Assembly: GCA_005191425.1 (NCBI GenBank)
Contig: SUPR01000001.1
Span: 40,380 to 72,379, forward strand
Reading direction: 5' to 3'
Origin: Candidatus Helarchaeota ASGARD archaeon Hel_GB_B
Lineage (GTDB): Archaea; Asgardarchaeota; Lokiarchaeia; Helarchaeales; HEL-GB-B
Length of the DNA stretch: 32,000 nt
The position numbers and the translations under genes were made by a program. Below are positions 3,630-27,248 of the stretch, piece after piece. Position 1 is the stretch's first letter. The number at the start of each line of letters is the position of its first letter. The notes beneath the pieces were generated by a model that was not told the DNA's origin, made no database searches, and was given only the letters and a program-made list of their open reading frames with translations.

Positions 3630-4136
3630 GTGGAAATTTTGAATGTAGAAATGGAATTGGAATTGGTAGATTCTCCGGGTCAACTAATAAAAATATTAGT
3701 ACCAATTGGAAAGTTTGGTGGAAATATTATTAATATTTTTCATATTAGAGATCGCATAAAAAATAATTATGTTCCAGTTATTCTTAATTTTGATATCCCA
3801 GACATTAACAAATTAAATAAAATAAAAGAAAAATTACAAGAAATTGGAATCAAAATTATTAGATTAGAAAGAGATGTCGGTGCATATAAAGGACATGTTA
3901 TTCTTATTGGTCATGTATTTGATTCAGATATTAATGATACAATAGATGAAGTAATTAATATTAACATTGAAAAAATTCAAATAAGAAAAATAAGTGCATT
4001 AATTAGAGACCCAAAGAAGCCATCGTCCGTAAAATTTTTAATCCAAACAGAAACTGAAGATTTAATGGAAAAAGCATACCAGAAATTTGAAGAGATATCA
4101 AAACACAAAAATCTATTAATGATCAAGGAACTTTAA
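3630..4136 (+). CDS. Tandem ACT-domain protein (archaeal homoserine dehydrogenase-associated regulator)
   Basis: LELVDSPGQL..IL.PI.K.GGNII.IFH.R and VILIGHVFDSDI.DTID; GTG start; 5 bp upstream of hom. Confidence 0.8.
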   Translation: MEILNVEMELELVDSPGQLIKILVPIGKFGGNIINIFHIRDRIKNNYVPVILNFDIPDINKLNKIKEKLQEIGIKIIRLERDVGAYKGHVILIGHVFDSDINDTIDEVININIEKIQIRKISALIRDPKKPSSVKFLIQTETEDLMEKAYQKFEEISKHKNLLMIKEL

Positions 4137-4141
4137 TAAAA

Positions 4142-5167
4142 ATGAAGGAATTTAAATTCATTATTATAGGATTTGGGACTGTAGGTCGGTCTTTAGCTAA
4201 ATTGGTTGTTAAAAAAAATGAGCAATTTAAAAAGAAGTGGGGAATTAATCTCAAATGTGTTGCTATTTTTGAGTATAATGGCGCTTTTGTTGATGAAATA
4301 AATGGGCTCGATCTCAAGACCATAGTTGATTTGCCCCCAAATGAATTTAGTTCATCTCCAAATTGGAAAAATGGTTATCTTGCAAATGACCACTTAAATT
4401 CAATTGATAGTAATATAGTCGTTGAATTGACTAAAACCAATATTAAAGATGCAGAGCCGGCTTATACATATATTAAAACATCACTGCTCAATAATAGAGA
4501 TGTCGTGACTTCTAATAAAGGCCCATTATCATTATATTACCCAGAATTGATGAAAATAGTCAGCAGCAATAATAGACTGTTTAGGTTTGAAGCTTCTGTA
4601 GGGGGTATAATCCCAATTTTGGGGACTTATAAAAATTTGTTGCTGGCAAATAAAATAATAGCCATTTCAGGAATATTAAACGGGACATCTAATTACATTT
4701 TAACTAAAATGACACTTGAAAAAATACCATTTGATATCGCATTAAAAGAAGCTCAAGAAAATGGATATGCTGAAGCTGACCCTTCTTTAGACATTCAAGG
4801 TATTGATGCAGCCTCTAAGTTAGTAATCTTAGCAAATAGTATTTTAGGTTATGAATCCTCACTTTCAAATGTCAAAAGACAAGGGATTGATAAAATAACC
4901 CCTGAAGCAATAGAACTTGCAAGAGAAGAAAGATATGTAATCAAACATGTGGCAGTTGCAAGGGACGGAAAATTAGAAGTTGCGCCCAAATTAATTCCTG
5001 AAAATCATACCCTAAATATTAGTGGGACTAAAAACATTATCATATTAAAAACTGAAGAAGCTGGAGAAATTGTCCTTAGCGGAAGAGGAGCTGGCGGAAT
5101 TGAAGCAGCTTCAGCTGTACTCTCCGATATTTTGTATATTTGTAAAACAAGAAAAAAAGAAATATAA
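4142..5167 (+). CDS. hom: Homoserine dehydrogenase
   Basis: IIGFGTVG Rossmann motif, VVTSNKGP, FEASVGG.IP, GILNGTSNYIL, GYAEADP..D..G.DAA.K, G.GAGG.EAASAVLSD. Confidence 0.95.
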   Translation: MKEFKFIIIGFGTVGRSLAKLVVKKNEQFKKKWGINLKCVAIFEYNGAFVDEINGLDLKTIVDLPPNEFSSSPNWKNGYLANDHLNSIDSNIVVELTKTNIKDAEPAYTYIKTSLLNNRDVVTSNKGPLSLYYPELMKIVSSNNRLFRFEASVGGIIPILGTYKNLLLANKIIAISGILNGTSNYILTKMTLEKIPFDIALKEAQENGYAEADPSLDIQGIDAASKLVILANSILGYESSLSNVKRQGIDKITPEAIELAREERYVIKHVAVARDGKLEVAPKLIPENHTLNISGTKNIIILKTEEAGEIVLSGRGAGGIEAASAVLSDILYICKTRKKEI

Positions 5168-5182
5168 TTTAAAATTTATACT

Positions 5183-5590
5183 TTAAAATGGACTCTGTAG
5201 TGGATTATACCCAGTTAATCCTAATATGACATTATTTGTAATTACGATAAATAGAATTGTTAAGAAGGAAATTAAAACTGCTTTTTGCCACTCAATGTCC
5301 ATAAGCCAATAGGTCAGGAAAATCAGTATAAAAAAAGCAACATATGGACTTAGGTTCTGAAATAATTGAGTCATATAGGGAGGAATATAAATAGGTATCT
5401 GGTCTAGTGCCATTGCTAAATACGGGATTAATAATACAATGATAATTCCAAGTAATATAGAAACTGCAATTCGTCTTTTTGCTTTGTATTTGCCTGCAAT
5501 TATAAGAACAGATAAATACATAGCTAAAATAGCAATTACTATCATTACCGTCAAATATATTAAATTTACAATCCACTCTAATTGCATCAT
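5183..5590 (-). CDS. Hypothetical 4-TM membrane protein
   Basis: 135-aa hydrophobic ORF; AGGTG SD-like site upstream at ~5600-5604. Confidence 0.7.
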   Translation of the reverse strand: MMQLEWIVNLIYLTVMIVIAILAMYLSVLIIAGKYKAKRRIAVSILLGIIIVLLIPYLAMALDQIPIYIPPYMTQLFQNLSPYVAFFILIFLTYWLMDIEWQKAVLISFLTILFIVITNNVILGLTGYNPLQSPF

Positions 5591-5821
5591 AAACTTTTAC
5601 ACCTAAATTTAAATTTTAATATCAGTTATTAAAATTTTTTTTTAAAACGTTCAACACAATGTTTTAAAAATTCATATACAAATTTGGATTTAATTAGATT
5701 TTGAATATTCTTTTAAAAAAGATTATAGTAAATTTTAGTATTTTATAAATTATGAGAAAACTTTAAATTTTTAGTTAAAAAAAAGTTTCTTAACCATAAT
5801 AATAATAAAGGATTAATAAAA

Positions 5822-6400
5822 ATGGAAATTTTTGAGGTCTTAGATAGTGGAGAAACGCGCTTCTTGACAGTAAATACCGTTAAAGAAGCCCTTCGACCTG
5901 ATAAAGTAATTATTATTTTAGACCATGACAAAAAATCAGTTTATATTCACGTTGGTAAAAATGCTTCAACTCGTCTGAAGTTTTCAAGTGCGAGGTCTTC
6001 ACGGTCAATACTTCAAGAACGAAATTTGGCTTATAGAGTTAAGACTATTGATGAAGAGGATCTACCATCATGGTTTGAGAGTATTACCAATAAGATAGTT
6101 AGAGATAATATAAGGGCTGAACCCCCACCACTTGAAATTCTAAAAATATTAAGAAAAATAGAAAACGCAGAACCTATTGAAGGATATAAAAGTGAAGCTG
6201 CTATTGTTAAAAATAAATTTTATAATTTAGAAACTACAGCTACTACAATTATGGGACAAAACCATTCTATTGAAAAATTTAAAGAAGTCCGAGATCTACC
6301 TGAGGGTTTTTATGTATTACCAAATACATATAAAGCAAGACTAATCATCGAAAAAGGTAAAGTTGTGGGAATTGAACTATTAAAAGAACGACCTACTTAA
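5822..6400 (+). CDS. Single gelsolin-like domain plus C-terminal extra domain (Asgard 1DGelX-like)
   Basis: L.PDKVIIILDHDKKSVYIHVGKNAS.R.KF..A....I......V..IDE...P.WF fits the gelsolin fold pattern. The C-terminal part (GYKSEAAIV.NKFY...DLPEGFYVL...Y.ARLIIE.GKV..IELLK) resembles GelX domain X as I recall it. Confidence 0.7.
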   Translation: MEIFEVLDSGETRFLTVNTVKEALRPDKVIIILDHDKKSVYIHVGKNASTRLKFSSARSSRSILQERNLAYRVKTIDEEDLPSWFESITNKIVRDNIRAEPPPLEILKILRKIENAEPIEGYKSEAAIVKNKFYNLETTATTIMGQNHSIEKFKEVRDLPEGFYVLPNTYKARLIIEKGKVVGIELLKERPT

Positions 6401-6545
6401 GATTAATTTTTATGCCCTTTTTTAAAATTTATTAATTTATTTTGATATTTATTAAATTAAACAAATTTATACCCCAAACTAATGGGATTTATGGATTAAT
6501 TTTAATTTACTAATAATTGCCCAAGATTACATAAATTGAGAAATA

Positions 6546-7079
6546 ATGAGCGAAGAAATTTATAAATTTTTTGAGGAACTTGTCAGAGACTATAAAATTC
6601 TATTAGAATTAGTTCCAGTTAATAATAACGCTATAAATATAATTACCCAATATTTCCCGCTTAATTTCGAGGCTAATTTTATAATATCTGACACTGGAGA
6701 AGAATTTTTTATTAGAATCTCCCCAGAATCCAATGTAATAAAGAAAAGAAGAAATCCATTTTCTATCATGACTATTATTACGGATAAAAATACCTTATTA
6801 AAGATAATTAGAAGACAAACTTCAATATTACGCGAATTTAATTTTCAAAATTTACATATATCTAATTTAAAACAAGTTTATATGTATCGAATTATTTTAT
6901 TAGGGATGTTAATACAATCTAAAGCAGAATATGATAATAGAAGAAAAATTCTGCGGTTCTTACCAATTAAAATTATCAGAAATTTCTTGTTGATATTTTT
7001 AGAAGATAAATCATTTGTTCTTATTAAATTGATTTTAAAAAAATTAATTCCAAAAATTATGGGTATTCTAGTTAAATAA
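6546..7079 (+). CDS. Hypothetical protein, possibly divergent SCP2-like lipid-binding domain with basic amphipathic C-terminus
   Basis: The pattern NFIISDTGEEFFIRI......MTIITD..TLLKII....S is SCP2-like but weak; it lies next to a clearer SCP2 gene. Confidence 0.45.
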   Translation: MSEEIYKFFEELVRDYKILLELVPVNNNAINIITQYFPLNFEANFIISDTGEEFFIRISPESNVIKKRRNPFSIMTIITDKNTLLKIIRRQTSILREFNFQNLHISNLKQVYMYRIILLGMLIQSKAEYDNRRKILRFLPIKIIRNFLLIFLEDKSFVLIKLILKKLIPKIMGILVK

Positions 7080-7098
7080 AATAAGATGATTAATAAAA

Positions 7099-7491
7099 AT
7101 GAGTGAATTATTTAACAAAATAGAATTTTTCTGTCAAGCATACAAAAAGAATTCTAAAAAATTACTTAATTTTAAAATAGGGAGTATTTCTAACTATTAT
7201 CCCCAGGGAATTAAAGTTAATATTATAGTATTAGACAATAAAATTGAAAATTATACCCTGTTAATATCAGATACTTCTTGTAAAGTTGTAAAAGGATTTT
7301 CTTCATCCCAATTAAATTTATCAGCCCTACCAGATGTGTGGGACAAGATTTTTTCAGGTAAATACCGGGTAATTAAAGGAATTATGGAGGGTAAAATAAA
7401 AGTAAGGGGGATAAGGTCAATGGTCAGTCCGTTGATAATATTATCATCATTATTTTATTTATATTCGGAGGATTTTGATAATAATGACTAA
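7099..7491 (+). CDS. SCP2 sterol/lipid-binding domain protein
   Basis: C-terminal DVWDKIFSG....KGIMEGKIKVRG is the SCP2 signature. Confidence 0.7.
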   Translation: MSELFNKIEFFCQAYKKNSKKLLNFKIGSISNYYPQGIKVNIIVLDNKIENYTLLISDTSCKVVKGFSSSQLNLSALPDVWDKIFSGKYRVIKGIMEGKIKVRGIRSMVSPLIILSSLFYLYSEDFDNND

Positions 7492-8950
7492 AAATACAGT
7501 TGCTGAAGATATTGCAGAATTTGTAGTAAATTTGAAATATAAAGATATCCCCAACCGTATTATCAAAAAGGCAAAAGATCAAATATTAGGAGTAATTGCT
7601 GCAATTTATGCGGGCTCACTTACAGATGAAGGAAAAATAATAATTAATACAGTTAAACAATTTGGTGATAAAGAGGAATCAAGTTTAATACCTTCGGGAT
7701 TTAAAACTTCAGTAAGAAGTAGTGTATTATGTAATTCGAGCGTAGGAGTTGCTCTTGACTATGTAGATTATCTATTAAGTGGGCATACGGGAGTCTCGGC
7801 AGTTCCGGTCTCTCTTGCAGTCGGAGAATCATTGAATTCTACAGGAAAAGAAGTTATAACAGCTCAGATCATTGCAAATGAAATAGAAGGAAGATTAGGA
7901 ACAAGCGTATTTCTAGGGCCACAAAATGGACAATTATGGTCGTATATTCATTTAATTGGTGGAGCAGTAGCTGCTTCACGATTATTAGGTCTTAATGAAG
8001 ATCAAGTAGCTAACGCAATTGGAATTGCACTCGCCCAAAGCACATATACAATTTTTAGAGGTTATTTTGCAATGGCAAAACTTTTTGTAAGCGGACTCCC
8101 TGCCCAAATTGGAGTTCAAGCTGCTTATTTTGCAAAAAATGGCTTAAGAGGGGCTCATGATATCATTGAGCACCCATTGGGGTTCTGTAATTTAATGGCA
8201 GATATACCATTAAAATTTATTACTAATTCCGCATTGGGTAAAGCTTGGGTTACAGATACTCTCTGTTATAAAATTTATCCAGGTTGCGCTTATGTCGATG
8301 CTATTGCAGATTGTATTCTTGATTTACATAAAGAATTTGATATTAATTACAAGGAAATTAAGAGAGTTGAAGTATTCTCAAGTATTTTAACCACGGCGAT
8401 GGACGATTTTGCAGCACCATTTACTACGATAGATTCGCTAAAAAAAGAACAGACTCATGTAGCGCTAAATTTTACAGTACCTTATACAGTGGCAGCAACT
8501 CTTATAGATAAAGAATTGACACCACGACAATTTAAAAAAGAAAGATATTTGAACCCAGAAATACATAATCTTGCTAATAAAGTAAAAATAATACCAGATT
8601 CTAAAATTTCATCAGAAATCCTGGGTACTTTGCCAGCTATTAAAATTCCAAGCTTAAAAGAGATTATATCTGGAAAATATTCGTTAGCAGATATAAATTT
8701 AGATGATGTAACAGTTGCTTTTGCCGGCGCAGTAAAGATAATAATGAATAACGGAAAAAAATACTATAAAAAACAAAATATTCCTTATGGAGCTCCAGGA
8801 AATCCTTATGATTTAAAGAAAAAATTTACACAAGAAGCTATAAATATATTACCAAGCGAAAAAATAGACCCAGCAATTCGCGCTATAAATAATATTGAAG
8901 CCATCGAAAATATTGGTGATTTAATACAAAAAATTTGTTCTCAAATATAA
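7475..8950 (+). CDS. MmgE/PrpD family protein (start may be ATG ~7484)
   Basis: AKDQILG, ALDY.D...GH....VP.SLAVGE, GAVAASRLLGL..DQ.ANAIGIA, G..AAYFAKNG.RG, KIYPGC, P.GAPGNP. Confidence 0.9.
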   Translation: MIIMTKNTVAEDIAEFVVNLKYKDIPNRIIKKAKDQILGVIAAIYAGSLTDEGKIIINTVKQFGDKEESSLIPSGFKTSVRSSVLCNSSVGVALDYVDYLLSGHTGVSAVPVSLAVGESLNSTGKEVITAQIIANEIEGRLGTSVFLGPQNGQLWSYIHLIGGAVAASRLLGLNEDQVANAIGIALAQSTYTIFRGYFAMAKLFVSGLPAQIGVQAAYFAKNGLRGAHDIIEHPLGFCNLMADIPLKFITNSALGKAWVTDTLCYKIYPGCAYVDAIADCILDLHKEFDINYKEIKRVEVFSSILTTAMDDFAAPFTTIDSLKKEQTHVALNFTVPYTVAATLIDKELTPRQFKKERYLNPEIHNLANKVKIIPDSKISSEILGTLPAIKIPSLKEIISGKYSLADINLDDVTVAFAGAVKIIMNNGKKYYKKQNIPYGAPGNPYDLKKKFTQEAINILPSEKIDPAIRAINNIEAIENIGDLIQKICSQI

Positions 8951-9651
8951 TTATGCTCATTAACTTTTTACTCTATAAATATTTAAATTCATTTACCAAT
9001 GGTCCAACTATTATCCTATAATTTACTACTTGTTTATATTATTAAAGAGATTTCGAATGAATTTTCAATTTATTTTTCAATTATTAACAGCATTAATTTG
9101 TTGTTATTTTATTTATATTCAATTCATCTAAAAAATACAAATTTCTCGTCTATTAAAGCAAAATTTGTCAATTTTTATTGAATTAAAATTAATTGCACCT
9201 AACGAATGTAAATAAAAAATTTATATTAAAAATTCGAATTCTGTGGACTTTACCTAAGATAAATATCAATGATTAATATAGATAAAAATTAATATAATTA
9301 AATTATTTTTTACTTTTTTAGGATGTTCGACTTTTGTATAATTCTAATTTAGACTTTCAAATTTTATGAATACAATAAATTTTTAAGAAAAATATGGAAA
9401 AAAAAGGTGGTCAGGCATCTAAAAATTCAATTATATGAATTGAGGGATGAAATATGGCTAATTTCTTAATGGAGCCTGACCATATTTTAAATGGTCTAGA
9501 AACCAAAAATATAATAGTTATTAAGTTATAAAAAATTTTGTAAAATAGATTTTTATTTGTTTTTTTATACAAATTATAGACCAGAATAATTGAGCAATTA
9601 GTCCACAAAAATTTTTGAAGAATAGTAAATTTTTATCAATGTGAAACAATT

Positions 9652-20353: not shown

Positions 20354-20857
20354 ATGCAAGTCTATATTACAACACTTGGGCGATCTGAATGGGCAGTTAT
20401 CAATAGTTATTATGCAGTTGTTAAAAATAAGAGATATTACCCAGATTTAATTTATATCATAACTGAAGATTTGTTCCAAGATAGAATTCACAAGATAATA
20501 GATGGTCTAAATATCATTTCAAATGAGTTTGGATTTAATCCAGAATATAAATTGACAATTGTAAAAGAATCCGAGTTTTCTGATGCAAAGAATAAAATCG
20601 ATATAATCGCAAAAGATTTAGAAAATTCTAATAATATGATTGCCGTAGATATTACATCTGGTCGAAAAGTATTAGTAATTAATATTCTCTTATTAATATT
20701 CTATTCAAAAATAAAAGTTCAACATATTTTTTATTTAGCAATAAAGACAATTAAAGGGGTTAATAAACCATATGAAATGATACCAATTCAAATTCAATCA
20801 TTAAGAGATTTTATCCAAGAAATTAATGAGGTGAAAAATAGACCAAATGGCACATGA
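20354..20857 (+). CDS. Stand-alone CARF-domain protein
   Basis: CARF motif I YITTLGRS.WAV and motif II IAVDITSGRK, followed by IFYL; no fused effector domain. Confidence 0.75.
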   Translation: MQVYITTLGRSEWAVINSYYAVVKNKRYYPDLIYIITEDLFQDRIHKIIDGLNIISNEFGFNPEYKLTIVKESEFSDAKNKIDIIAKDLENSNNMIAVDITSGRKVLVINILLLIFYSKIKVQHIFYLAIKTIKGVNKPYEMIPIQIQSLRDFIQEINEVKNRPNGT

Positions 20858-21854
20858 AACAATAATTAATCCCCCAGAATTACAAATTTTATTGAACAAA
20901 TTTGACGACTATTCGATATCATTTCCTGCTTTTTCTAAAGATACAATTTTAACTGCAACACCATTTAATGATTGTTATAAAATAAAAGTAAATGATAATT
21001 ATTTTGATTCCGATCGAGATGGTCTTAACATTTTTAACGATATTTATTATTCAGAAATACCAAATAATCAAGATTTTCTAGAATGTCTCTTGTCAAGTAA
21101 TTGTATTACCTATCCTAACGTGGGAGATTTTGAGTATATAAGAAAATCATATAAAAATATCCATAAAAAGGTATATTTTGCTGTGGATACAAATATTCTC
21201 TATCATAGGTTTATCTCTTTCTCTAAATTAAAAGAAGAGAAAATCGTATTAGCACCTACCATTAAAGATGAAATAGAGTCATCAATAAATTATAAATATA
21301 ATAGGGAGGAAATTAATGAAATTAAAAAAATTGTAAGATATAACAAAAATTTATTTGATGAATTTAGAAATAGACGCATAAAAAAGTCAAGAAAGGCAGC
21401 ATATCTTGCATTAAATGAGCTAAAACTTTTAAATATCCTTAATATAGACAGCGTAAAAATAGAGCAAGAAAATTATGAACAAAATGATTTAAAAATTGTT
21501 AGAGAGTTAAAAGCTTTTGAAAATGACTCAGGAGCGTTGGTAGTATTATTAACAGCAGATAGAGCAATGGTAGATTTCTGCAGAATAGAGTCCTTAGATT
21601 ATTTTAATTTTGATTATCCAAACACATTTAATATAAATACATGTTCGGCACAACAATTTAGGTCTTTAATTTTTAATTTAGCCGTTGTTTTTGGATTTAT
21701 AAAATTAAATTCGACAATAATATTCGGCGAATTTTCAGGAAAACACGAGTTAGACAATTTGAAAATTAGATTTTTAAACAAAAACTTGTATAATAAATTC
21801 GAAAAAGATTTAAGCATCTGCCGGAAGTTAGAAAAACTAAATTTTGATTTTTAA
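20847..21854 (+). CDS. PIN-domain ribonuclease with N- and C-terminal extensions
   Basis: YFAVDTNIL, LAPTIKDEI, NDLKIV, VVLLTAD acidic tetrad; overlaps the CARF gene by 11 bp; GAGGTGA SD at 20828-20834. Confidence 0.8.
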   Translation: MAHETIINPPELQILLNKFDDYSISFPAFSKDTILTATPFNDCYKIKVNDNYFDSDRDGLNIFNDIYYSEIPNNQDFLECLLSSNCITYPNVGDFEYIRKSYKNIHKKVYFAVDTNILYHRFISFSKLKEEKIVLAPTIKDEIESSINYKYNREEINEIKKIVRYNKNLFDEFRNRRIKKSRKAAYLALNELKLLNILNIDSVKIEQENYEQNDLKIVRELKAFENDSGALVVLLTADRAMVDFCRIESLDYFNFDYPNTFNINTCSAQQFRSLIFNLAVVFGFIKLNSTIIFGEFSGKHELDNLKIRFLNKNLYNKFEKDLSICRKLEKLNFDF

Positions 21855-22059: not shown

Positions 22060-22971
22060 TTGGAACGAGTTAAAGTATTTGTCCCGGGCCATTTAACTGG
22101 CTTTTTTGAAATTTGCAATGGACCTAATTTATTATCGACCGGTTCTAGAGGCGGTGGGTTATCGATCAATAGTGGTATGCTTACTGAAATTTTAGTTAAA
22201 AATTATGATGAAGATGTAATTAATATAAAAATTAATGGTAAAAAAGTAAATAATGCAATTGTAAGTAAATATATTGTAGATTATTTTTTGAAACAAGTAA
22301 AACCAAATAATTATTATGTAGAAATAAATCATACTACTGAATTTCCAATTGGAAATGGGTTTGGGATGTCTGGGGGTGGTGCTTTAGGAATTTCCTATGG
22401 ATTGAATATACTCTTAGAGTTGAACAAAACTAGGAATGAATGCGCTCAGATTGCACATATAGCAGAAGTAAATAGTAAGACGGGTTTAGGTGATGTGATT
22501 GCACAAACCTTTGGAGGCGTAGAGATAAGAGTGGAACCTGGAGCACCTGGAATTGGAGTTCTAGAAAATATACTATTTATCCCAAATTTGAAGGTAGTTT
22601 GTTATACAAATGGAAAAATAGATACTAATTCAATTATAAGTAATAAAGATCGAATAAATGATATTAATAAAGCTGGGAATATGTTAGTAAAAAAACTATT
22701 GAAATCACCATCTATTTCCAATTTAATGGAATTATCATTCCAATTTGCTCAAAGTTCTGAGCTGATAACGGATGATGTTTTAGATTTATTAAAAATCCTT
22801 CATTCATATGGGTTTCAAAATGCATCTCAGATTATGTTAGGTCGTTCAATTTTTTGTATAGTAAATGAGAATGAAGTGGATAAAGTTAAAGAAATAATTA
22901 ATGACCATACGTCTAAAGGAAATATATTTATTGCAAATATTGACAATCAAGGAGCAAGAATAATAGGTTAA
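22060..22971 (+). CDS. pok: Pantoate kinase (GHMP family)
   Basis: FVPGHLTGFF, GSRG.G, P.G.GFGMSGGGALG, AH.AEV...TGLGDV.AQ..GG.EIR..PG.PG; TTG start. Confidence 0.93.
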   Translation: MERVKVFVPGHLTGFFEICNGPNLLSTGSRGGGLSINSGMLTEILVKNYDEDVINIKINGKKVNNAIVSKYIVDYFLKQVKPNNYYVEINHTTEFPIGNGFGMSGGGALGISYGLNILLELNKTRNECAQIAHIAEVNSKTGLGDVIAQTFGGVEIRVEPGAPGIGVLENILFIPNLKVVCYTNGKIDTNSIISNKDRINDINKAGNMLVKKLLKSPSISNLMELSFQFAQSSELITDDVLDLLKILHSYGFQNASQIMLGRSIFCIVNENEVDKVKEIINDHTSKGNIFIANIDNQGARIIG

Positions 22972-22976
22972 TATAA

Positions 22977-23783
22977 ATGATAGAAATACCAGATGATCAT
23001 CCAAGGGCTGAATCGCTTAGAATAAGGCATGTAATGGAAAAAGGATACATGAATAGAATTGTTGCATTAGCAGGGTTAATTGCACATGGTAGAGGAGAAG
23101 CTTTTGATTACATTATTGGAGAGAAAACAACTCCTCCAGCATTAAAGTCAATAGAAGCAGCATTATCTATGATTAAATTAGCAAAATATCCAGTATTTAG
23201 TATTAACGGAAATACAGCGGCTCTTGCACCAAATGAGATTGTCAAATTTGCAGAAATCTCGGGAATAAAATTGGAAATCAATTTGTTTTATAGAACGGAG
23301 GAACGTATACAGGCGATTAAAAAACATTTATTAGATGTAGGGGCTAAAGAACTTTTTGGTATCTCAGATAGAAAAGCACAAATTCAGGAGTTATCAAGCA
23401 ATAGAAGGTTTGTTGATAAAGATGGAATATTAAAATCAGATGTAATATTAGTACCTTTAGAAGATGGAGATAGGACTGAAGCACTAAGAAAAATGGGAAA
23501 AATAGTTATTGCCATTGATTTAAATCCTCTCAGTAGAACTGCCCAATGGGCAAATATTACTATAGTAGATAATTTTTTAAGAGTTATTAAATTATTTATT
23601 GAAAAATGGCCAGATATTGAAAAAAAATCAGAATCAGAACTAAAACAAATAGTGAGAAATTTTGATAATAAAGAGAATTTAAGAGAAATGATAAAATATT
23701 CAATTGATTATTTAAATAAAATTTCAAATAAAGGAATATATATTGATGAAGTTTTGAATTTCGGATATAAAATAAGAATATAG
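22977..23783 (+). CDS. pps: 4-phosphopantoate--beta-alanine ligase (phosphopantothenate synthetase)
   Basis: IP.DHPRAESL.IR, GLIAHGRGEAFDYIIGE.T, SINGN.AAL, VPLEDGDRTEAL..MGK.VIAIDLNPLSRT. Confidence 0.95.
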   Translation: MIEIPDDHPRAESLRIRHVMEKGYMNRIVALAGLIAHGRGEAFDYIIGEKTTPPALKSIEAALSMIKLAKYPVFSINGNTAALAPNEIVKFAEISGIKLEINLFYRTEERIQAIKKHLLDVGAKELFGISDRKAQIQELSSNRRFVDKDGILKSDVILVPLEDGDRTEALRKMGKIVIAIDLNPLSRTAQWANITIVDNFLRVIKLFIEKWPDIEKKSESELKQIVRNFDNKENLREMIKYSIDYLNKISNKGIYIDEVLNFGYKIRI

Positions 23784-23790
23784 TGATTAT

Positions 23791-25104
23791 ATGAGTAAAA
23801 ATTATAGTGAGAATGTAAAAGTCCAAGTTGCACTTGATTTAATGAATCTTGATCGTGCTGTTCAGATTGCTAAAGAAGCTGTTGAAGGTGGAGTAGATTG
23901 GATAGAAGTAGGGACACCATTAATAAAGTCAGAAGGAATGAATGCAGTTAGAACGCTTAAAAAAGAATTTCCAGACCATAAAATTGTAGCAGATATGAAA
24001 ATTATGGATGTTGGAAGTTTAGAAGTAGAAATGGCTTCTAAAGCAGGGGCAGATATTGTAATAATTTTAGGTGTTAGTGATAATTCTACTATTTTGGAGG
24101 CTGTTGAAGCGGGTAAAAAATATGGGTCCCAAATTATGGTAGATTTAATTAATGTAAATAATTATATTGAGCGAGCTATTACTTTAGAAAAAATGGGTGT
24201 AGACATAATCTGTATTCACATTGGAATAGACCAGCAAGTTTTGGGTATGAACCCTGTGAAAATAACAAAAGAAATAAATGAGGTAATTTCTAATGTAAAA
24301 TTGGCTATTGCAGGTGGTCTTAATTCAGAGACTGCACCTTTAGCTGTAGAAGCAGGTGCTGAAGTTCTTATCATTGGGCATGCTATAACGGCTGCTGAAA
24401 GCCCCACAGAAGCAGTCAAAACAATTAAAAAGGCAATAAAAACTGGAAAACCGATTGAATCAAAATTGATGAAAAAATATAACGAACAAGAATTTTATAA
24501 AGTCTTTTCATTAGTTTCAACTCCAAATATCTCAGATGCAATGCACAGACACCCATGTCTTGAGGGTATACGACCTGTTTGGAAAGGTGCGAAATTAGTC
24601 GGGAGAGCAGTAACTGTAAGATGTTATAATGGTGATTGGAGTAAACCAGTTGAAGCAATAGATATAGCACAAAAAGGAGACGTTATTGTAATTGATGAGG
24701 GTGGAGGCGACATTGCAGTTTGGGGAGAATTAGCCAGCTGGTCATGCAAAATGAAAGGGATTAATGGAGTAGTTATCGATGGCGCAATTAGAGATGTTGA
24801 GGACATAGCAAAAATTGAGTTCCCTGCATTTTCTAGATTCATAAAGTCCAATGCAGGAGATCCTAAAGGTTTTGGCGAGGTTAATATTGAAATTGACTGC
24901 GGAGGACAAAAAATTAGACCAGGTGATTGGATAATTGGTGATGATAATGGTGTTATTGTTATTCCAAAGGAAAAAGCTCAAGAGATGGCAAATAGAGCAA
25001 TAATGATCCATGAAAATGAAAATCGAATTAGAGAAGAAATTAAAAGAGGTAGTACTTTATCTAAAGTTTTGAAATTAAAAAAATGGGAAAAAGTATTAGG
25101 TTAA
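23791..25104 (+). CDS. 3-hexulose-6-phosphate synthase fused to RraA/HMG-aldolase domain
   Basis: HPS barrel: QVALD, EVGTPLIKSEG, ADMKIMD.G, H.GIDQQ, AGGL. RraA: STPNISDAM, GRAVTV, AVWGELA, VIDGAIRD. Confidence 0.93.
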   Translation: MSKNYSENVKVQVALDLMNLDRAVQIAKEAVEGGVDWIEVGTPLIKSEGMNAVRTLKKEFPDHKIVADMKIMDVGSLEVEMASKAGADIVIILGVSDNSTILEAVEAGKKYGSQIMVDLINVNNYIERAITLEKMGVDIICIHIGIDQQVLGMNPVKITKEINEVISNVKLAIAGGLNSETAPLAVEAGAEVLIIGHAITAAESPTEAVKTIKKAIKTGKPIESKLMKKYNEQEFYKVFSLVSTPNISDAMHRHPCLEGIRPVWKGAKLVGRAVTVRCYNGDWSKPVEAIDIAQKGDVIVIDEGGGDIAVWGELASWSCKMKGINGVVIDGAIRDVEDIAKIEFPAFSRFIKSNAGDPKGFGEVNIEIDCGGQKIRPGDWIIGDDNGVIVIPKEKAQEMANRAIMIHENENRIREEIKRGSTLSKVLKLKKWEKVLG

Positions 25105-25114
25105 GGTTATATAA

Positions 25115-26032
25115 TTGAAGATTGGTGTTATGGGCGCCGGAGCAATTGGAAGTTTATTTGGTGGCTATTTAAAAAAGTCAGGGCAAGATGTTATCCTAAT
25201 AGGAAAAGAATGGAACGTAAAACCCATTAAAGAACATGGACTGGAGCTTGTTCCTTTTAATTCTGAGGATACTCTGAACATAAAAATAGAAGCAACAACT
25301 GACCCTGCTACGTGTGGATTCCAAGATTTGGTAATTTTAACAGTAAAAGCTTATGACACAAAATCAGCGCTAATTGATGCAGAACCAATAATAAAATCTG
25401 GACACACTCGTATTTTATGTTTACAAAATGGTTATGGTACCGAAATTATAGCATCACAATTATATGGCAAATCTTCAACATTAAGAGGTGTAACTTCACA
25501 TGGAGCAGTTATTACACCCGGGCACGTAATTCACACTGGTTTAGGTGATACGTTTATTGGTCAGTTAGACCCTAACACCAAAATTGATGATATTATAGAA
25601 ATTTTCAATCAAGCTAATATAAAAACAAAATTTGTTGAAAACATCCAAGATATTATTTGGAGTAAAGTATTGGTTAATGCTTCAATAAATCCATTTGGCG
25701 CATTAACAAAATTAAGAAATGGTCAATTACTTGAAAATTCTGATATTGTAGAATGTATGAAACAAGTTATAAGGGAAGGAGTTAATGTCCTTAATTCACA
25801 TGGAATAAAATTAAATATCAATAATGCAATTGAAAATGCAATTAGAGTAGCCAAAATGACTGCGTTGAATAAAAACAGTATGTTGCAAGACATTGAGAAA
25901 GGACGCCGTACAGAAATAGATTATATAAATAAAGCGATATCAGAATTAGGTAAAGAAAATGGGATAAAAACCCCTATGAATTATTTATTAACTGCTTTGA
26001 TAAAAGGATTAGAATATTCTATTAAAAATTAA
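25115..26032 (+). CDS. panE: Ketopantoate reductase
   Basis: GVMGAGAIGSLFG, VKAYDT, QNG.G, WSKVLVNA.INP..AL, N..SMLQD...GR.TEIDYIN. Confidence 0.95.
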   Translation: MKIGVMGAGAIGSLFGGYLKKSGQDVILIGKEWNVKPIKEHGLELVPFNSEDTLNIKIEATTDPATCGFQDLVILTVKAYDTKSALIDAEPIIKSGHTRILCLQNGYGTEIIASQLYGKSSTLRGVTSHGAVITPGHVIHTGLGDTFIGQLDPNTKIDDIIEIFNQANIKTKFVENIQDIIWSKVLVNASINPFGALTKLRNGQLLENSDIVECMKQVIREGVNVLNSHGIKLNINNAIENAIRVAKMTALNKNSMLQDIEKGRRTEIDYINKAISELGKENGIKTPMNYLLTALIKGLEYSIKN

Positions 26033-26045
26033 ATGGTTTAATAAA

Positions 26046-27248
26046 ATGCAAGAATTTGGAGTACCTGAAAAAGAAATTATTTTAAGACTAACAAAACTAT
26101 TAAAAGACGATAAAAAATATGACTCAGGAAGAATTCTTGGGTCTATGTGTACAAAACCACTTACTATTGCAATAAAAATTTACCAAGATTTTTTCGATAA
26201 AAACTTAGGAGACCCCGGATTATTTCCTGCAACATGGGCTATTGAACGCGATGTTATACGTATGATGAGTACTTTATTAAATAATCCAAACGGTGTCGGT
26301 TACTGCTGCTCGGGTGGTACTGAGGCAAACCTTATTGCAATGAGAATGGCAAGAAATTCTCATGATATTAAACATCCAGAAATTATTGTCCCTCTTTCAG
26401 CTCATGCTTCATTTGATAAAGCAGCTGATTTAATGAATTTAGACATAATTAAAGTACCTTTAAATGAAAATTATCAAGTTGACGTTGAAGGCGTGAGAGC
26501 TGCTATTTCAAAAAATACCGTTGCGATTGTTGGAATTGCTGGGACTACATCATTAGGTGTCATTGACCCAATCAAAGAATTAAATGAAATTGCTATAGAA
26601 AATGACATATATTTTCACGTGGACGCGGCATTTGGTGGACTTGTTTTGCCATTTTTAAAACGACTTGGATATAATATCCCTAAATTTGACTTTACTCTTG
26701 ATGGTGTTAAATCAATTACAGCAGACCCACATAAAATGGGAATGTCTCCGATAGGTACTGGTGGTATAATTTTTAGAGATGCCTCAATTGTTAGGTCCAA
26801 TGCTTTTGAAATACCATATCTAGCTGGTGGTAATTTTAAACAGGCAACAATAATAGGAACGAGGTCTGGAGCATCAGTAATAGCAACATGGGCAATATTC
26901 AAATATTTAGGAATAGATGGCTACTCAAAAATAGTTAAAAAATGTATGAATCTTACACATATCCTTTCAAAAGGAATTAAACAAATTGATGGCGTATCTC
27001 CAGTGATAGACCCAATTATTAATATAGTGGGCTTTGAGTCTGACCGCTACAATATACATACTATTGATAGGGAATTAAGAAAACGGGGATGGGCTTTAGG
27101 TGCATTTCCAAATTTCTTAAGAATTGTAGTAATGCCGCATATTAGAAAATGCCATATTGATGAATTTTTATCTGACTTAGAAGATATTGTTCATCATTTA
27201 AAGGAAAAATCAAGTTATGTACAAAAAACACCCGTAAAAGCATTTTAA
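26046..27248 (+). CDS. mfnA: MfnA-type PLP-dependent decarboxylase (tyrosine/aspartate decarboxylase; likely beta-alanine supply)
   Basis: ILGSMCT.P, NLGDPGLFP, SGGTEAN, HASFDKA, HVDAAFGG, ADPHK (PLP lysine), GTRSG. Confidence 0.92.
   Translation: MQEFGVPEKEIILRLTKLLKDDKKYDSGRILGSMCTKPLTIAIKIYQDFFDKNLGDPGLFPATWAIERDVIRMMSTLLNNPNGVGYCCSGGTEANLIAMRMARNSHDIKHPEIIVPLSAHASFDKAADLMNLDIIKVPLNENYQVDVEGVRAAISKNTVAIVGIAGTTSLGVIDPIKELNEIAIENDIYFHVDAAFGGLVLPFLKRLGYNIPKFDFTLDGVKSITADPHKMGMSPIGTGGIIFRDASIVRSNAFEIPYLAGGNFKQATIIGTRSGASVIATWAIFKYLGIDGYSKIVKKCMNLTHILSKGIKQIDGVSPVIDPIINIVGFESDRYNIHTIDRELRKRGWALGAFPNFLRIVVMPHIRKCHIDEFLSDLEDIVHHLKEKSSYVQKTPVKAF

Follow-up and report, generated by a model that had tools for sequence, protein, structure and literature searches.

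Coenzyme A (CoA) is universal, and the archaeal pathway leading to it has been described as ketopantoate hydroxymethyltransferase (KPHMT, the product of panB), ketopantoate reductase (KPR), pantoate kinase (PoK), phosphopantothenate synthetase (PPS) and a decarboxylase termed 'GDC' (PMC6650551). Yet PanB is absent from many archaea, and apparently from some bacteria, that retain KPR, PoK and PPS, and in these the first committed step of pantoate synthesis has no assigned gene. Here we examine a CoA operon of this kind from Candidatus Helarchaeota ASGARD archaeon Hel_GB_B. Between its PPS and KPR genes, this operon carries a gene for a 437-aa protein in which a hexulose-6-phosphate synthase (HPS) is fused to an RraA-like domain.

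The operon lies in a window of 32,000 nt, by which we mean the whole stretch of DNA that was analysed (assembly GCA_005191425.1, contig SUPR01000001.1, positions 40,380-72,379 of the forward strand; G+C content ~28%). The genome comprises 3.54 Mb in 182 contigs and is 93.7% complete. We propose that the HPS-RraA fusion is the ketopantoate-forming enzyme of the operon, and that it acts as a non-orthologous replacement of PanB. Given the comparisons described below, we assign this reading a probability of roughly 0.65.

The HPS-RraA fusion and its genome

Profile searches resolve the operon into five open reading frames (ORFs), all on the plus strand, that correspond to PoK, PPS, the fusion, KPR and an MfnA-type decarboxylase. 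Gaps of 5, 7, 10 and 13 nt separate the ORFs, and the spacers on the two sides of the block measure 205 nt and 216 nt. An earlier, sequence-only reading of this DNA had described the same five co-oriented genes with gaps of 5-13 bp, and it proved accurate both in the exact coordinates of the ORFs and in their family matches. The fusion gene and its two domains are located as follows.

23791 to 25104, plus strand: HPS-RraA-like fusion of 437 aa, candidate ketopantoate-forming enzyme (NF005442, 660.6 bits against a cut-off of 593)
23818 to 24441, plus strand: HPS domain, residues ~10-217, a (beta/alpha)8 barrel of the OMPDC suprafamily (TIGR03128, 231.6 bits, above the cut-off of 200)
24484 to 25080, plus strand: RraA-like class II (metal-dependent) 2-oxoacid aldolase domain, residues ~232-430 (PF03737, 163.4 bits)

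The protein is a full-length member of the NF005442 family, with residues 8-434 aligned to model positions 3-428 of 430 and both domains covered. On sequence grounds, the N-terminal domain is a genuine HPS for which lyase activity is predicted. Specifically, it shares 56% identity with the HPS portion of 9LJ9 (E 8.8e-61), a solved fusion of HPS with 6-phospho-3-hexuloisomerase (PHI), and it also matches the structure 3F4W (E 6e-40; Foldseek TM 0.92). Residues E39, D68, K70, D73, H143 and D147 are invariant among 16 Asgard homologues, and the active-site residues D68, K70, D73, E39 and H143 are identical to those of the aligned 9LJ9 HPS domain.

The closest solved relative of the C-terminal domain is the 4-hydroxy-4-methyl-2-oxoglutarate/4-carboxy-4-hydroxy-2-oxoadipate (HMG/CHA) aldolase 3NOJ (E 2.7e-22; Foldseek TM 0.79). 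Residues R334-D335 of the fusion align to R123-D124 of 3NOJ, the catalytic pair of that enzyme. The GEL and IRD motifs, which the sequence-only reading had called intact, are present at residues 312-314 and 333-335, and their G-E-L and R-D residues are invariant in the 16 Asgard homologues. The fusion is related to the CHA/HMG aldolases and is not one of their orthologues, as it scores 127.6 bits with NF006731 (cut-off 179) and 115.7 bits with TIGR02798 (cut-off 304.5). An AF2 model of the fusion (mean pLDDT 85.5) comprises the barrel at residues 10-218, a linker and the RraA-like domain at residues 232-430. Both domains are well folded, and at a pTM of 0.54 their relative orientation is undefined in this monomer model. 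Foldseek matched each fold separately and found no solved structure of the fusion.

A search of the 93.7%-complete genome with PF02548, the panB profile, gave no match even at E<=10. This agrees with the sequence-only reading, which had noted PanB as the one enzyme of the pathway missing here. Furthermore, the fusion itself gives no PF02548 signal, and its equivalence to PanB would be functional rather than by homology. A profile search of the genome for an HpcH/HpaI aldolase was likewise negative, and the fusion carries the sole RraA-like domain that the genome encodes. On the strength of the negative PF02548 and HpcH/HpaI searches, we rejected the idea that the genome hides a PanB-like enzyme or some further class II aldolase.

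The genome does encode other enzymes of sugar phosphate and one-carbon (C1) metabolism. PHI is encoded outside the operon (182 bits; cut-off 160), and therefore hexulose-6-phosphate should be available. A separate Fae-HPS protein (NF009833, 586 bits) could carry the bulk flux of the (reverse) ribulose monophosphate (RuMP) pathway, which would leave the operon copy of HPS free for a dedicated role. FolD, serine hydroxymethyltransferase (SHMT) and the tetrahydromethanopterin (H4MPT) enzyme MCH are all present. The SHMT and FolD genes adjoin (G000:C45:8306-10460), MCH is encoded on contig C134 and Fae-HPS on contig C98, and both kinds of C1 enzyme coexist in this organism.

Distribution and genomic position of the fusion and panB

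Co-occurrence of the fusion and panB was scored in 301 Asgard and 151 Thermoplasmatota genomes (~450 in all). The fusion is present in 30 of the Asgard genomes (28 matches above the family cut-off, one weaker and one truncated), and 28 of these lack panB; among the 271 Asgard genomes that have no fusion, 232 carry panB. Thermoplasmatota exhibit the same pattern. There, 110 genomes carry the fusion, all except one of them (109) without panB, and 30 of the 41 fusion-free genomes have panB. This brings panB to 31 of the 151 genomes, with both genes present only in G326. When the two phyla are pooled, panB is absent from 137 of 140 fusion genomes and present in 262 of 312 genomes that lack the fusion.

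Neither gene was found in 39 Asgard genomes. Fifteen of these belong to families f5, f12, f18 and f19 and also lack PPS; therefore the whole pathway is missing there. The remaining 24 are scattered metagenome-assembled genomes (MAGs) from families whose members otherwise usually carry panB or the fusion. Where the other pathway genes are retained, the fusion and panB thus have the complementary distribution looked for in a PanB analogue. Five further fusion genomes, namely a Thermoplasmata MAG, a Methanosarcinaceae genome, a Desulfobacterales genome, a Nezhaarchaeales genome and a Thermococci MAG, all lack panB, as does the control genome of M. acetivorans, in which the fusion is present.

The two genes also exchange places at a single chromosomal position. 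In the Lokiarchaeial family f3, genera g4, g5, g8 and g12 carry only the fusion, g3 and g6 carry panB, and genus g9 is split into two fusion species and three panB species with no overlap. The shared gene order is MazG, MfnA, DUF2100, a Zn-ribbon gene, a Ras GTPase, a variable slot, a RagA-like GTPase and a class IV (IlvE-like) aminotransferase. In G144, G138 and G057 the slot contains panB, encoded on the minus strand; in G279, G183, G030 and G040 it contains the fusion, encoded on the plus strand. Genomes G144 and G138 (panB) share one genus with G279 (fusion), and g9 holds both states. In a tree of the neighbouring MfnA gene from 17 genomes, at least two changes of state between panB and the fusion are required, although this is a single-gene proxy that leaves the direction of change open. 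Taken by position, the fusion sits where relatives have panB, as would a PanB analogue. The aminotransferase at the edge of this slot would, judging from its family, interconvert valine and 3-methyl-2-oxobutanoate, which is the substrate of PanB and the proposed substrate of the fusion. The genes directly flanking the slot encode eukaryote-like small GTPases, one of the Ras/Roc family with a C-terminal zinc ribbon and one Gtr1/RagA-like (4839-6670 and 8570-9514 in locus L055; 4940-6688 and 8039-8980 in locus L147).

Two Asgard genomes look like transitional or redundant states. In G207, panB (locus L150) lies in the same Ras-GTPase/aminotransferase/MfnA neighbourhood and an intact fusion is located elsewhere, in a non-syntenic position. 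On that contig (G207:C22, locus L057), the fusion spans 6998-8335, and a 35-aa RraA-like fragment that is 77% identical occurs ~3 kb away at 3917-4021. The fragment and the non-syntenic fusion suggest a recent acquisition or rearrangement. In G168 (contig C376, locus L056, 2664-9276), the order is PoK, fusion, panB, KPR, PPS (minus strand) and MfnA, with the fusion adjoining an intact panB.

The operon arrangement of the window is not confined to one genome. The gene order PoK-PPS-fusion-KPR-MfnA recurs in G294, a genome of the same order as the window genome, and in three Atabeyarchaeia genomes, and shorter clusters (fusion-KPR or PoK-fusion-KPR) occur in four further Asgard families. Asgard genomes with recurring clusters include G007, G042/G066, G270 and G168. 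Beyond Asgard, a Nitrososphaerota MAG has fusion-KPR, Hecatellales have PPS-fusion-KPR, a Thermococci MAG has PoK-PPS-fusion and Nezhaarchaeales have PoK-fusion-KPR-PPS-MfnA; Bathyarchaeia are among the lineages with clusters of the PPS-fusion-KPR type. In other Asgard families panB lies directly 3' of PPS (loci L142, L143, L145 and L153) or is separated from it by KPR (L157), and the position of the fusion after PPS in the window is the position of panB after PPS in these relatives. The sequence-only reading had asked whether panB and HPS-RraA anti-correlate and whether this neighbourhood recurs. The anti-correlation is strong in two phyla, and the neighbourhood is found in several archaeal lineages, Asgard and beyond.

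Clustering of the neighbours at 80 diverse fusion loci revealed no dominant non-CoA partner. At 6 of these loci, labelled bacterial, a SIS-domain/PHI-like gene lies directly 5' of the fusion on the same strand (for example L126, 6528-7100), which is consistent with a supply of hexulose-6-phosphate from fructose-6-phosphate. At 9 of the 80 loci (Thermoplasmata; for example L083, 1558-2562), a DUF362 protein with 4Fe-4S ferredoxin motifs is encoded directly 3' of the fusion on the same strand. HPS domains also occur in another setting. In the Asgard genus g43 (4-6 Mb genomes, with panB), open frames of 810-860 aa begin with an HPS domain (G295:C6:2978-3628, G253:C112:9477-10124, G259:C1:857061-857711 and further g43 genomes), which would represent HPS fused to a large unknown partner.

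Proposed reaction and alternative explanations

The remaining genes of the operon frame the step that the fusion would catalyse.

22060 to 22971, plus strand: putative pantoate kinase (PoK), GHMP-family kinase, TTG start (PF00288, 37.7 bits)
22977 to 23783, plus strand: phosphopantothenate synthetase (PPS; 4-phosphopantoate--beta-alanine ligase) (PF02006, 235.7 bits; NF010324, 335.8 bits, above the cut-off of 227)
25115 to 26032, plus strand: ketopantoate reductase (KPR; PanE/ApbA family), TTG start (PF02558, PF08546; TIGR00745, 271 bits, above the cut-off of 141)
26046 to 27248, plus strand: MfnA-type pyridoxal phosphate (PLP) decarboxylase (TIGR03812, 499.8 bits, above the cut-off of 299.4)

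The first of these ORFs fails the equivalog cut-offs of both pantoate-kinase models, NF041122 (197.3 bits; cut-off 500) and NF040725 (145.3 bits; cut-off 380), though these are its top NCBIfam matches and by far the best ones. The name PoK is thus putative, resting on this best match and on the adjoining PPS gene; homologues of the ORF adjoin PPS, panB or the fusion at other loci. The MfnA-type enzyme is likely an aspartate decarboxylase that yields beta-alanine, by analogy to archaeal MfnA/GAD homologues, for which this role is established. Outside the operon, two overlapping genes on its 5' side (window positions 20354-21854) encode a Csa3-like CRISPR-associated Rossmann domain protein (PF22662) and a PIN-domain protein (PF13638), neither of which has an NCBIfam match. 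The region on the 3' side (27465-29968) encodes a DUF2961 protein and a phosphofructokinase of the bacterial type (PF00365, 256 bits). The latter uses fructose-6-phosphate, the proposed ultimate C1 source, and its proximity may be coincidence.

The gene content and order of the operon, the identity of both domains and their conserved motifs, the absence of panB, its mutual exclusion with the fusion and the slot swap are direct observations. They suggest, as the best explanation, that the fusion is a ketopantoate synthase with no need for methylene-tetrahydrofolate. The idea that the RraA domain is a non-orthologous PanB replacement was put forward in the sequence-only reading, and it gains support from the missing panB, the anti-correlation and the recurring neighbourhood, to which the swap in family f3 is now added.

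In the reaction scheme that we envisage, PHI would convert fructose-6-phosphate to D-arabino-3-hexulose-6-phosphate, which the HPS domain, working in the lyase direction, would cleave to ribulose-5-phosphate and formaldehyde. The RraA-like domain, acting as a divalent-metal class II aldolase through its Arg-Asp pair, would enolise 3-methyl-2-oxobutanoate and add the formaldehyde to give 2-dehydropantoate. This aldolase step would correspond to the orphan 'ketopantoaldolase' chemistry, EC 4.1.2.12. KPR, PoK, PPS and the MfnA-type decarboxylase of the operon would then take the product on to 4'-phosphopantothenate. We infer the substrates and the direction of the HPS reaction from the domain families and their context; channelling of formaldehyde between the HPS and RraA domains may occur and is pure inference. 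The proposed chemistry has precedent: E. coli KPHMT and YfaU are among the metal-dependent 2-oxoacid aldolases that couple 2-oxoacids with free formaldehyde, and folate is not listed as a component of the reaction mixtures (PMC10127515).

Several observations weigh against this reading. The genomes compared are related, hence non-independent, and mostly MAGs, and our counts are accordingly given without a P-value. Both the fusion and an intact panB are present in 3 of the 140 fusion genomes (G168, G207 and G326), and the adjacency in G168 could mean that the two proteins cooperate instead of substituting for each other. At most Thermoplasmata, Methanosarcinales and Desulfobacterales loci, the fusion has no CoA gene within a distance of 8 kb. 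The control genome of M. jannaschii encodes PPS and an RraA-like protein, and neither panB nor the fusion, which means that there has to be at least one further solution, or a split form. Characterized RraA-like aldolases use pyruvate or oxaloacetate, and 3-methyl-2-oxobutanoate is bulkier. The only ilvD signal in the window genome comes from 60 C-terminal residues encoded at the edge of a contig (G000:C97:2-181), where the gene was probably cut by the assembly. A simple account of the type 'no folate, hence no PanB' was also tried and is not supported: in a genome that encodes both FolD and SHMT, folate shortage offers no explanation for the loss of panB. The term 'folate-independent', used in the sequence-only reading, is therefore best taken as referring to the proposed chemistry and not to an established requirement of the organism. 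Finally, a literature search turned up no paper that links RraA/hexulose-phosphate synthase (the HPS-RraA family) with ketopantoate or pantoate, and nothing relevant was found on pantoate synthesis in methanogens. The protein family is thus already catalogued, and its proposed function was not found in the literature searched.

Three other explanations were weighed. The first is that the fusion serves pantoate synthesis and is not the enzyme that forms the C-C bond. In this arrangement HPS would do no more than furnish PanB, or another enzyme, with formaldehyde or a C1 unit, and the RraA-like domain would, for example, decarboxylate oxaloacetate or have a regulatory role. The placement of panB directly 3' of the fusion in the PoK-fusion-panB-KPR cluster of G168 speaks for such a helper, as does the presence of both genes in G207 and G326, and formaldehyde is reported to condense spontaneously with pterin C1 carriers (PMC7073904). 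However, 137 of the 140 fusion genomes have no panB to supply, and the window genome offers no other candidate class II aldolase. Moreover, the aldolase catalytic pair is invariant, and the swap at the f3 slot replaces panB and does not join it. We regard this explanation as unlikely.

A second alternative, which we judge slightly less plausible again, is that the fusion handles formaldehyde or RuMP intermediates and is unrelated to CoA. HPS would then make ribulose-5-phosphate for pentoses, the aldolase would trap toxic formaldehyde on pyruvate to give 4-hydroxy-2-oxobutanoate, and the link to CoA genes and the absence of panB would reflect shared lineage or C1 physiology. Most loci outside Asgard and TACK, where CoA neighbours are lacking and the genes nearby are mixed (DUF362/Fe-S, KaiC-like, M48 peptidase), are consistent with this idea, as are the pyruvate use of known RraA-like aldolases (3NOJ) and the occurrence of the fusion in lineages that run the reverse RuMP pathway. 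Yet Fae-HPS and PHI are already encoded in the genome for that purpose, and the KPR of the operon requires a source of ketopantoate. A lineage effect leaves unexplained the exchange of panB and the fusion at one slot within genus g9, and the repeated embedding of the fusion between PPS/PoK and KPR in several phylum-level lineages is not accounted for either.

That the C-terminal domain regulates RNase E, as the database name implies, is hardly credible: the NF005442 family name and a fold similarity to RraA structures favour it, but the fusion falls below the RraA equivalog cut-offs (NF006875, 63.1 bits against 136; TIGR02998, 39.3 bits against 241), the domain is nearer to HMG/CHA aldolase and keeps the Arg-Asp catalytic pair, and to our knowledge RNase E is not an expected target in archaea.

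We return to the ketopantoate synthase reading as the one that best fits the locus. Somewhat more guardedly, we lean toward extending it to NF005442 as a whole. The family would be a widespread, methylene-tetrahydrofolate-independent ketopantoate synthase that draws its C1 unit from a sugar phosphate and perhaps passes formaldehyde directly to the aldolase. It would provide the first step toward CoA in most Thermoplasmatota, many Asgard and TACK archaea, Methanosarcinales and some bacteria, would supply the gene for the orphan EC 4.1.2.12, and would have undergone repeated swaps with panB, even in situ. If this is true, a large family labelled 'ribonuclease regulator' gains a metabolic role and an orphan EC activity gains a gene. 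Vitamin B5 synthesis would connect with the sugar-phosphate chemistry of RuMP in place of the pterin C1 pool, and false predictions of pantothenate auxotrophy would be corrected in MAG-based models of Asgard archaea, Thermoplasmatota and methanogens. The enzyme may also find use as a formaldehyde-coupling biocatalyst.

Comparison with known systems

PanB (KPHMT; EC 2.1.2.11, PF02548) is the natural point of reference for the proposed activity. The two proteins would share the product 2-dehydropantoate, the nucleophile and divalent-metal enolate chemistry. They also share an operon position (after PPS and before KPR) and a syntenic slot, and their distributions are complementary. In contrast, they have no relationship in sequence or fold. 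PanB belongs to the PEP-mutase/isocitrate-lyase barrel superfamily, whereas in the fusion a barrel of the OMPDC type is joined to an RraA-like domain. Their C1 donors would differ as well, with 5,10-methylene-tetrahydrofolate used by PanB and formaldehyde from hexulose-6-phosphate used by the fusion.

The HMG/CHA aldolases (LigK/PcmE/ProA; 3NOJ), which are RraA-like class II pyruvate aldolases, provide the closest comparison for the C-terminal domain, as their R123-D124 pair and G-(D/E)-L motif are conserved in the fusion. Unlike these enzymes, the fusion scores below their equivalog cut-offs, is joined to HPS, lacks an aromatic-degradation context and would act on another nucleophile and another electrophile.

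The other archaeal HPS fusions, such as HPS-PHI (9LJ9) and Fae-HPS (NF009833), share the HPS domain with the window protein. Formaldehyde set free by HPS would be consumed by the fused partner, a feature in common with Fae-HPS. The partner here is an aldolase, however, and not an isomerase or the H4MPT-dependent formaldehyde-activating enzyme. Lastly, the window protein is a full-length member of NF005442/PRK07028, the 'bifunctional hexulose-6-phosphate synthase/ribonuclease regulator'. That name gives the protein no metabolic role and treats its second domain as a ribonuclease regulator, whereas the evidence assembled here points to pantoate synthesis.

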